Below are positions 32,301-35,300 of a stretch of DNA of 64,000 nucleotides, one piece after another. Position 1 is the first letter of the stretch; every line of letters starts with the position of its first letter. The position numbers and the translations under genes were made by a program. This DNA comes from Saccostrea cucullata. Taxonomy: Eukaryota. The notes beneath the pieces are model-generated. The model searched no databases. It saw only the letters and a program-made list of their open reading frames with translations, and was not told the DNA's origin. The stretch is taken from NCBI RefSeq assembly GCF_032062105.1, contig NW_026937595.1:1-64000 (forward strand), in the 5' to 3' direction.

Positions 32301-35300
32301 AAAAACATCTTTCTTTTTCGATGAAAGATATGCAGGAGAATTTCTTAGCGTTCTGAATATATAGTATCCTTCATTTAATCTTACAATTTTTTCTGCAGAG
32401 GCTGGATTTAAAACTTGTTCTGCAGTGATTTTTTTACCCTCTGATTTACATCTTCTCAATGCCAAGTTAACTTTGTCACTAACTTGCTTAATTTGAATTT
32501 TCTTCAATTTGAAAAATATGTTAGGTACAGATTGTGCTGCTCGCCTATCAATACTGCGCAACTCCCATTTTGCAATATCACTGTAGTGTACTGGAATTTC
32601 TCTATCCTCATTTTCAGTTCTCCTTTGACCACAAAATATTGTAGGAAAACAGAGATATTCTGCATCTTTATCTGCAAATAAACTTATTGGTTTTTGGTTT
32701 TCACCTGGGGCAAACACATAAAGTTTATTGGTATCACTGTCTGCTTCATCAACAAGTGTATCAGAATTGCCTTGAATGCAATCATCTGAACTTATTTCAC
32801 AAAAACCATCTTCATTCCCTTCAGGTTCACGATCATCTCTATCATTTGAAGTACCTATCAATTCTTGTACTGTTTCCTCATTACTTCTTTCAATTTCATC
32901 TCTCCAAGAATGATCTATCGTTATACCTGAATTCTTATACAATTCACTGTTTTTCATAAGCCACTGTAATGCATTCATTACTACATTTGGACGAACGTTT
33001 TCTGTGAAGCATGCTGACTTGTGAGATAATCTTTTCTTTAATTTCACAGCTATAGTCACATGCTCATCTATTTGACGTGGAAGGGCATTTACAGTTGGCT
33101 GAATATCAACTGGAACATTTACAATATTTCCTTTGACTGACATCTGACCTCCTCTTGGTAATTCTCTTATTTGCATAAATGGTATCCGTTGTGATATCAA
33201 CCTCTCTTCCAATGGATGTAAATTCAAAGCATCAGGTTTGTCAGGCCATTTCATTCCATTTTTAACTGAGAGTCTTGGAATTTTTTCGTCCTTTAGAGCC
33301 GAACAGCAAGTTAAGCAAAGCCATTCTATACCATCCACAGATCTTAAGCCAGTACAAATACTTCTACTATGAGCACTAAGATTAATTGTATCTAGCTTCA
33401 CAACGCTTTTGAAAAACCAAGTCTGATGACAGCATGTGCACACATAAATTGGGCCAATTTTTACTTGATCATGGAATTTCTTGATGCACTCATCTAAACT
33501 ATTACCATAACATCTTTTCTTCGATAATTGGTTTTCACGGTCTTTGAATTCTGAATCAAGTCTCCTTTTAGCCTTAGAAAATTTTTCAATCTCCCTTTCT
33601 TTTTCTCTGTTATTTCTTCTACTTTGCTGTTTATATAAACGTTCCTTCTCCTGTTGTTCCACATCATTTCTTTTCATCCTTTTTGCTTCTCTTTCTATTG
33701 ATCTAAACTCTGGATTTAGTCTTGCTTTAGTTCTACTTTTCAAATTGCTTTCTCTGTCTTTCTGCTTTGTCTCTGGATTTTTTCTAGCAATTTTTTTGGC
33801 AGCAAGTTCTTTATCTTTATATTCTTTACTAAGTCTTGCTTTAGTTCTACTCTTCAAATTGCTTTCTCTGTCTTTCTGCTTTGTCTCTGGATTTTCTCTT
33901 GCAATTTTTCTGGCAGCTAGTTCTTTATCTTTATATTCTTTGCTAAGTCTTGCTTTAGTTCTACTTTTCAAACTGCTTTCTCTGTCTTTCTGCTTTGTCT
34001 CTGGATTTTCTCTTGCAATTTTTTTGGCAGCTAGTTCTTTATCTTTATACTCTTTGCTAAGTCTTGCTTTAGTTCTATTTCTACTAGACAATGCATTATC
34101 ACTTCTTCTTTTTTCCGAGTTTTCCCTCCTTTTCCGCATATAATTTTTCATATATTCTTTTTTATTTGCTTGTGATGATTCACAAGGTACAATTTTTCTT
34201 GACATGTTTTCTTGGAACTCAAAATACTTGTCAATCAAAGATAGCCTATCACTACCTGAAATGGACGCCCTTGATTTTTGTGTTACAGACAATGGTTGAA
34301 TCTCAAATTGACTTATCATTGAAATATTACAACTTTGATAAAATGCAAACATGTAATCCACAAGCTGATTAATATCACTGAAAGTAATTTTAACAGCTCT
34401 ACCATCTGCAGATGAGAGACCATCTTCTCCATGTGAATGTGAATCAAAAAATACAGGAGAGTTCTCTTCATTCATATATATTGCAGAGCAAATTCCTCCA
34501 ACAATAATTAATCCGTGCTTGTACCTCATAAAGAGCAACTCAATGCCTTCTTTCAAATTTTTACTTTGACATGATTGATCCCAATTGATATGAGTCAGTG
34601 TTCCATAAATCTGTTCAAAATAGCATATGTCATATTGGCTGTCATTGACATACACAGACCTGGGAAGTTCTTGATATTGTAGCATTTTTGAAACAAATTG
34701 AACAGACGATTGTAATTCTGCAATTCTGACTCTAAATAAATCATCTCCAGCAAAAAGTACACTATCAAGTTGTGCAGATGTAGATGTATTTTGCAGAATG
34801 ATAGACATCAAAGCATTGCATGTGCACTGAACTCCTCTTGAAAAAACTGGAAACGAATTACTAGATTGATTAATTGTTCCAAATAATTTTGTTATGGGCA
34901 AAGTTTTCTCATTGGAAGGCATGGATGTTGTAGCCTGTTCGAAACTGTTTGAAGGGAGAGAATGATCTTTGCTTTTTTTACCTAAACAAAATTTATCAGT
35001 GTTCTTGGCATAAAAAGACATATTGTCTGATTTCATAGAATTTGATGACGATTTGTTTGAATCTATTGTGATTGAAGGCAAATTGGCAGAGTCTATATCA
35101 GTGTTTATAGCAATGTTTCTAGCGCCCGAAGGCAAATCTTCAATGTTTCTAGCGCCCGAAGGCAAATCTTCAATGTTTCTAGCGCCCGAAGGCAAATCTG
35201 CAATGTTTCTAGCGCCCGAAGGTAAATCAAGTACTCTTTTTAAGGAGGCAGTATCCCCCCAGTCTCTTGCACTATTTTTTACGTGGCTAGTGTCCACGAG

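Follow-up and report, generated by a model that had tools for sequence, protein, structure and literature searches.

In a 64,000-nt stretch of Saccostrea cucullata DNA, the whole of which is called the window here, we found a viral tegument-like deubiquitinase (VTD) domain that keeps its Cys and Asp-x-His residues intact and is fused to the N-terminal part of a Helentron Rep-helicase-endonuclease. The domain is probably a deubiquitinase, perhaps also a deneddylase, that would shield the transposase, or proteins working with it, from removal directed by ubiquitin. The fusion is real but ordinary, as it belongs to the published VTD family, and the VTD has long belonged to this Helentron lineage and was not captured recently from a virus.

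The VTD is encoded within a stop-free minus-strand frame (28356-35564) whose first Met, at 35450, opens a single ORF of 2,364 amino acids (28356..35450). The MPR start motif recurs in 9 of the 11 copies examined, the window copy counted in. In order, the ORF encodes a low-complexity N-terminus, the VTD, a K/E/R-rich linker, a zinc finger, DUF6570, Rep, a Pif1 helicase and an AP endonuclease, all on the minus strand. Three in-frame 38-aa K/E/R-rich repeats (33718..34077) lie in this linker, which is followed by a CxxC...CxxC zinc finger (33306-33440) and DUF6570 (32907-33287, Pfam E 6.2e-23), which together span 32907..33440. Rep (HUH endonuclease) was matched by the Pfam family Helitron_like_N at 31431..32549, with what we take to be its H-I-H motif at 31980-32021 and its tyrosine motif at 31431-31475, and the Pif1-type SF1B helicase lies at 29133..30467 (PIF1, E 2.5e-20). 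The C-terminal AP-type endonuclease (28380..28997) matched Exo_endo_phos_2 with E 1.8e-4 and Exo_endo_phos with E 0.0024, in each case below the curated cut-off, and related elements have an endonuclease over the cut-off at the corresponding place. Rep followed by Pif1 in one frame, the C-terminal AP endonuclease and DUF6570, a published marker domain (PMC11417382), identify the element as a Helentron (HLE2). The first-pass annotation had described the protease domain as fused to a transposase. The fusion stands, with the Rep, Pif1 and endonuclease domains downstream in one frame without a stop, and the partner is indeed a transposition protein, though a Helentron Rep-helicase-endonuclease and not a DDE enzyme. 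The closest named relatives are Saccostrea proteins, which have 93-94% identity over the DUF6570 region and 78-82% over the VTD, and scallop proteins come next.

Around this ORF we delimited a whole autonomous Helentron of ~18.4 kb on the minus strand (~24465..42891), using ends common to other copies. The 5' end (42862..42891) opens with TT and has a 12-bp subterminal repeat (42889-42878) that forms a hairpin with its inverted copy (42873-42862), after which comes a short CGTC-type microsatellite; 2 of the 10 further copies retrieved share this end within the 20 kb covered. The 3' end (24465..24499) has the same 12-bp subterminal repeat (24499-24488), a 14-bp palindrome (24484-24471) and a TT before a T run, and is shared by 9 of the 10. 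Nine matches to the 12-mer repeat with at most one mismatch occur in the window, compared to 0.09 expected. Subterminal inverted repeats, a 5' inverted repeat, a 3' palindrome and TT ends make up the end anatomy described for Helentrons (PMC4067079), and all are present here.

Between its 5' end and the ORF, the element is colinear with the two copies that share that end (G000:C14967 and C22738). This stretch contains a tandem array of a 163-168-bp unit just inside the 5' end (42161..42661, minus strand) that was found in other copies too, and a 146-bp tandem array in the 5' non-coding region (39191..39762, no strand assigned) that has a counterpart at the corresponding position in other copies. 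A further 146-bp tandem array adjoins the ORF upstream (35601..36886, likewise unstranded). It has a terminal hairpin of its own, is found in several but not all copies, and looks like a nested non-autonomous Helentron. The Helentron ORF is the sole long ORF of the element. That this is a real and intact autonomous VTD-bearing Helentron is well supported.

The VTD, a peptidase C76 (Herpes_teg_N) domain, occupies ~aa 186-393 (34272..34895, minus strand) according to Pfam and the structure model. The first-pass annotation had placed it at 34290..34900 (aa ~180-390), which is nearly right and only misses the exact edges of the folded domain. An HMM search returned the family that had been expected, PF04843, with 39.1 bits (E 8e-10) when the domain was searched by itself and 33.3 bits within the whole protein, compared to a cut-off of 25, and phmmer matched PDB entry 8ADD with E 2.5e-23, well above what chance would give. 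The VTD model, built with a 95-row alignment, had a pLDDT of 95.4 and a pTM of 0.92. Foldseek gave the zebrafish Helitron domain DrT1-VTD2 (8ADD) as the best match (E 4.8e-21, TM 0.90, rmsd 1.6 Å, 30% identity), followed by cytomegalovirus M48 (2J7Q; TM 0.75, 14% identity) and Waddlia VTD1 (TM ~0.5). For the same three structures, an independent structure aligner gave Z scores of 31.0, 23.5 and 15.6, and the model superposes on 8ADD at 1.5-1.6 Å over 206-212 residues, which lends indirect support to the predicted triad geometry. The domain has the M48-like alpha-beta-alpha fold of 8ADD and 2J7Q, as had been predicted, with 8ADD the closer of the two. The K6-specific VTD subgroup (Wc-VTD1 type) has an extra C-terminal alpha-9 helix; our model, of a fragment ending at aa 394, terminates in a strand (E203-214) and fits 8ADB and 8ADC weakly (TM ~0.5).

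The motifs that drew attention to this domain are all where the first-pass annotation had put them, on the minus strand: LFGTINQS at 34863-34886, an 11-residue motif holding the Cys codon at 34809-34841, and VFFDSHSH at 34431-34454. Cys209 (34824..34826), predicted to be catalytic, aligns with Cys322 of DrT1-VTD2, and of the 86 rows of the 95-row alignment that have no gap there, 85 have Cys. Asp336-Ser-His338 (34437..34445, with Asp336 at 34443-34445 and His338 at 34437-34439) aligns with the Asp-x-His catalytic pair of DrT1-VTD2, and both the Asp and the His are present in 95/95 rows. Gln195 (34866..34868, minus strand), presumably the oxyanion residue as in the M48 family, is a Gln in 81 of 82 non-gap rows. 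In the sequence alignment to 8ADD, the three residues of the proposed Cys plus Asp-x-His set fall on residues whose loss by mutation left DrT1-VTD2 inactive (PMC9741609). By hand count the D-S-H of the 8ADD chain is one residue off the numbering in the paper, and it is the sole such motif in that chain.

Deubiquitinase or deneddylase activity is likely by homology to zebrafish Helitron VTDs that have been assayed, in line with the activity first proposed for this domain: of the zebrafish Helentron VTDs, three act on ubiquitin and two of these also on NEDD8 (PMC9741609). By analogy with these enzymes, Cys209 would attack the isopeptide bond after Gly76 of ubiquitin, with His338 acting as the base and Asp336 as the acid, and the preferred chains may be K48 and K63 (plus K11). 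Tethered by the K/E/R-rich linker to a protein that nicks and unwinds DNA, the VTD would act in cis, so that the transposition complex would be spared degradation or stripping from DNA. It is plausible that the VTD would oppose host ubiquitin-based control, and the source paper likewise offers as a hypothesis that such domains protect transposition proteins from degradation (PMC9741609). In a sequencing-run search, 8 of 24 runs had small word shares (0.05-0.14), too little to indicate expression.

The domain content of other Helentrons is consistent with a role in ubiquitin removal. We compared 40 further loci, 37 found via a DUF6570 search and 3 via a VTD search, that were chosen mostly for long ORFs and not at random. 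A VTD and/or an OTU domain was present in 37 of these 40 loci (23 with both, 8 with VTD only and 6 with OTU only), and in the window element no OTU was found in six frames across the whole 18.4 kb. VTD and OTU are interchangeable in one slot, which argues that the selected function is ubiquitin removal. The other 3 loci had neither, showing that such deubiquitinase classes are not essential in every Helentron.

Besides the 3 of 40 loci with neither domain, two features of the window VTD count against the deubiquitinase reading, a Gln at the position of DrT1-VTD2 Asp376 and a long stem branch. Gln260-Glu261 (34668..34673, minus strand) are by alignment the equivalents of Asp376-Glu377, which bind the RxR tail of ubiquitin. 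In DrT1-VTD2, the D376A mutation strongly reduced activity, and Glu377 is the weightier of the pair for Ub-AMC (PMC9741609). The window VTD keeps the Glu of this acidic pair and has Gln for the Asp, at a position that is usually acidic yet variable across the family: Gln occupies it in 1 of 95 alignment rows, and an acidic residue is absent from 22 of the 95. Of the 30 closest genomic copies, 28 have Gln-Glu, one has a stop there and one was unparsed, so the Gln is a subfamily trait and not decay of the window copy. Quick trees (LG+G4, SH-aLRT support only) were made for the VTD with 25 rows and for Rep with 32 rows, the latter lacking L051 and L052, whose match was too short. In these trees the stem of the window subfamily measured 1.34 changes per column for the VTD versus 0.22 for Rep, suggesting that the specificity of the subfamily may have shifted.

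The domain could therefore be mainly a deneddylase, or have shifted to another ubiquitin-like modifier, with host cullin ligases or DNA-damage signalling as targets and not the transposase. A fixed Asp-to-Gln change at the tail-binding site and a long stem, both despite purifying selection, would fit such a change, and both NEDD8-AMC and ubiquitin-AMC are substrates of the DrT1 VTDs (PMC9741609). We nevertheless regard it as unlikely, since Glu261 is kept and is the equivalent of the residue that matters more for tail binding, the 22 rows without an acidic residue at the first position indicate that the site tolerates change, and DrT2-VTD is a ubiquitin-only enzyme (PMC9741609).

The first-pass annotation had also suggested that the protease could process the polyprotein, a proposal that turned out to be poorly supported. 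In its most specific form, the protease would cut its own polyprotein at a conserved LP-R-G-G/Q in DUF6570, freeing a VTD-linker-zinc-finger product from the Rep-helicase-endonuclease. The ORF has five di-glycine sites, of which only LP-R-G-G-Q (33144-33161, minus strand) falls between the VTD and the Rep core. Its R-G-G matches the final three residues of ubiquitin, DrT1-VTD2 cleaves RLRGG-AMC (PMC9741609), and polyproteins are often cut at di-glycine by viral deubiquitinases. The segment is highly conserved and has a low-confidence fold (pLDDT <50 for residues 103-129 in the model of the zinc finger and DUF6570 fragment). However, the motif is retained where no VTD was found, both in OTU-only lineages and in L054, a 10-kb locus without VTD or OTU in six frames. 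The putative P1 Gly is present in 43 of 48 rows, whereas the preceding Gly and the following Gln are present in 48 of 48, so that the P1 residue varies between invariant neighbours, the opposite of what is expected for a cleavage site. P4 is Pro instead of the Leu of ubiquitin, and a cut there would split a Pfam domain. A complex prediction for the VTD and a 44-residue LP-R-G-G-Q segment, run without alignments and with a poorly folded partner, scored 0.00 and speaks neither for nor against cleavage. Self-cleavage at this site is thus very unlikely, and we give as little credence to the combined proposal that the subfamily VTD has shifted in specificity (fixed Gln, long stem) and cuts its own transposase at LP-R-G-G/Q, which, if true, would mean that Helentrons mature their protein in the manner of viral polyproteins.

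A genome search with the VTD gave at least 150 matches, as all 150 candidates scored, out of 394, were matched, and these fall in groups of ~91-94%, 72-83% and 35-40% identity. Many of the matches sit in ORFs of more than 2,300 aa and many other copies are broken. Broken copies are usual for transposons, and inactive VTDs exist in insects (PMC9741609), which leaves some room for the window VTD as a decaying or catalytically dead passenger. We consider this extremely improbable, because the window ORF is intact and all of the 30 top genomic matches retain Cys, Asp and His; the three residues are also intact in 37 of 38 VTD domains from long ORFs, the exception being a domain without its N-terminal part. 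The median dN/dS of the VTD among 9 intact copies was 0.163 (29 of 36 pairs, dS > 0.2), indicating that the domain is maintained by purifying selection, though the pairs are non-independent. By the same measure, Rep (0.075) and the helicase (0.091) had lower values and the endonuclease (0.207) and the unstructured N-terminus (0.587) had higher ones.

The resemblance of this domain to viral proteins is true homology. Viral structure matches at E <= 0.001 numbered 26, three of them unnamed and the named ones all herpesvirus large tegument proteins, and among PDB chains the profile search matched several from herpesvirus large tegument proteins. An ancient herpesvirus link is published, in which a herpesvirus ancestor is proposed to have taken the domain from a Helitron (PMC9741609). 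The further idea that the domain may record gene exchange with large DNA viruses was not supported for the window element. The VTD is 30% identical with its zebrafish Helitron counterpart, and its identity with 30 Helentron relatives is 32-62%, compared to 11-22% for the viral matches. The VTD tree largely follows the Rep tree, the two concurring on the main clades with the scallop element P0196 discordant; neither tree includes viral rows, so they cannot test the direction of transfer. No malacoherpesvirus is named among the 50 matches listed, and an IMG/VR search with the single protein, sensitive to close relatives only, gave no close relative. Our literature search found no work on a malacoherpesvirus tegument deubiquitinase and no insect-virus VTD among the matches listed. 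Around the tegument-like domain, no viral family scored over the cut-off among the other scanned window ORFs of at least 120 aa. Given these identities and concordant trees, and the transfer from Helitron to herpesvirus ancestor proposed by Erven et al. (PMC9741609), the idea that the domain was recently taken from a large DNA virus, such as a mollusc herpesvirus, has a next to negligible chance of being correct, and nothing indicates any recent exchange with viruses.

This Helentron carries little weight as a discovery, since published work already reports the fusion, its occurrence in molluscs, and enzymatic activity for the fish homologues. The finding does touch on the question of why Helentrons carry deubiquitinases at all. 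For that question the genome is useful material, with many near-intact copies and with lineages that have VTD only, OTU only, both or neither, and an intact copy with defined ends suits a comparison of wild type and a Cys-to-Ala mutant for stability and transposition.

Erven et al. (2022) reported 1,221 non-viral VTD sequences, mostly from Helentron ORFs of vertebrates, insects, cnidarians and molluscs (PMC9741609), and in the literature from 2023 on we found no follow-up on transposon VTD deubiquitinases. The window VTD is like the zebrafish domains DrT1-VTD1/2 (8ADD) and DrT2-VTD in fold, in the Cys and Asp-x-His residues and in its placement in a Rep-helicase-endonuclease ORF (PMC9741609). 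The window element has one VTD and no OTU, whereas DrT1 has two VTDs and DrT2 has a VTD and an OTU (PMC9741609), and the window VTD differs from DrT1-VTD2 in having Gln for Asp376 and another hairpin-loop sequence. Compared to the herpesvirus proteins M48, UL36 and BPLF1 (C76, PF04843), it shares the fold (TM 0.75 to 2J7Q, Z 23.5) and the G-x-Q-C and F-D-x-H motifs, with F-D-S-H where the herpesvirus proteins have F-D-P-H. Its identity to named herpesvirus proteins is 11-20%, and it lies outside any tegument protein or provirus.

At the level of the whole element, HELIANO (2024) described Herpes_teg_N as a stable Helentron domain that shares the RepHel frame and occurs almost only in HLE2 (PMC11417382). 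The window element is like these HLE2 elements in having Herpes_teg_N and DUF6570 in the RepHel frame, an endonuclease, and TT-flanked ends with subterminal repeats, and we found no difference in architecture from the elements described there (PMC11417382). Vojvoda Zeljko et al. (2020) described oyster non-autonomous Helentrons (Cg_HINE) that carry satellite-like repeats (PMC7492417). Going by that description, the window element and Cg_HINE are alike in their subterminal and inverted repeat, microsatellite, tandem array, and 3' subterminal repeat with palindrome, whereas the window element, at 18.4 kb, is autonomous and Cg_HINE is non-autonomous (PMC7492417).

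Two 146-bp tandem arrays lie inside the autonomous Helentron of this window, at 35601-36886 and 39191-39762, and both look like nested non-autonomous Helentrons. The same arrays were found at corresponding positions in several copies of the autonomous Helentron, and therefore this element spreads satellite-like arrays as cargo. Elsewhere in the window, three 166-bp satellite-like arrays (4628-5391, 15463-16292 and 56034-57152) are each bordered by a one-base variant of the 12-bp subterminal repeat present at both ends of the autonomous Helentron. Their units are weakly related, at about 60%, to its internal 163-168-bp units.

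A 2-kb non-autonomous element at 44802-46769 has both of its ends in common with the autonomous Helentron, matching it at 83% over 631 bp on the 5' side, where the outer arm of the hairpin formed by the 5' repeat and its inverted copy is absent, and at 76% over 134 bp on the 3' side. The authors of PMC7492417 were unable to connect their oyster non-autonomous families with autonomous partners, so the two elements described here may be a link of that kind; their identity is too low for direct partnership to be claimed. At the far side of the window, the minus strand at 60466-61446 holds an open frame of 326 aa in which a MYND zinc finger was recognised (E 4.1e-11). This frame lies beside a 34-bp minisatellite at 59748-60252 and probably represents a host-gene exon.

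Elsewhere in the same genome, at G000:C14293 (L033-L034), a single 20-kb stretch contains two oppositely oriented copies of the window's Helentron family, and one of them seems to break into, or to border, the 5' part of the other. At L054:2914-3030 (G000:C7900), a Helentron ORF in which no protease was detected starts with the 2A-like ribosome-skipping motif G-I-E-T-N-P-G-P, the sole case among the ORFs scanned. In the Helentron at L053:6479-7228 (G000:C2263, minus strand), a different domain occupies the slot of the viral tegument-like (VTD) or OTU deubiquitinase; on visual inspection it resembles a cysteine protease of the CE clan (Ulp1-type), and Pfam returned only a weak YopJ-family match below the cut-off (E 0.002).

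In quick trees, the Rep of the scallop Helentron protein P0196 clusters with the window Helentron's subfamily, whereas its VTD, accompanied by an OTU, is placed outside the VTD-only clade, a discordance that suggests a module swap between Helentron lineages.

Searching the VTD structure against the viral models of BFVD gave weak matches to giant-virus proteins (Indivirus, Catovirus, Yasminevirus and Tupanvirus; TM about 0.5). Ranked second was Q06VS9, an unnamed 810-aa viral protein (TM-score 0.83, identity 22%) whose accession block may belong to an insect ascovirus, and which exceeds every named herpesvirus protein among the matches listed in both TM-score and identity.
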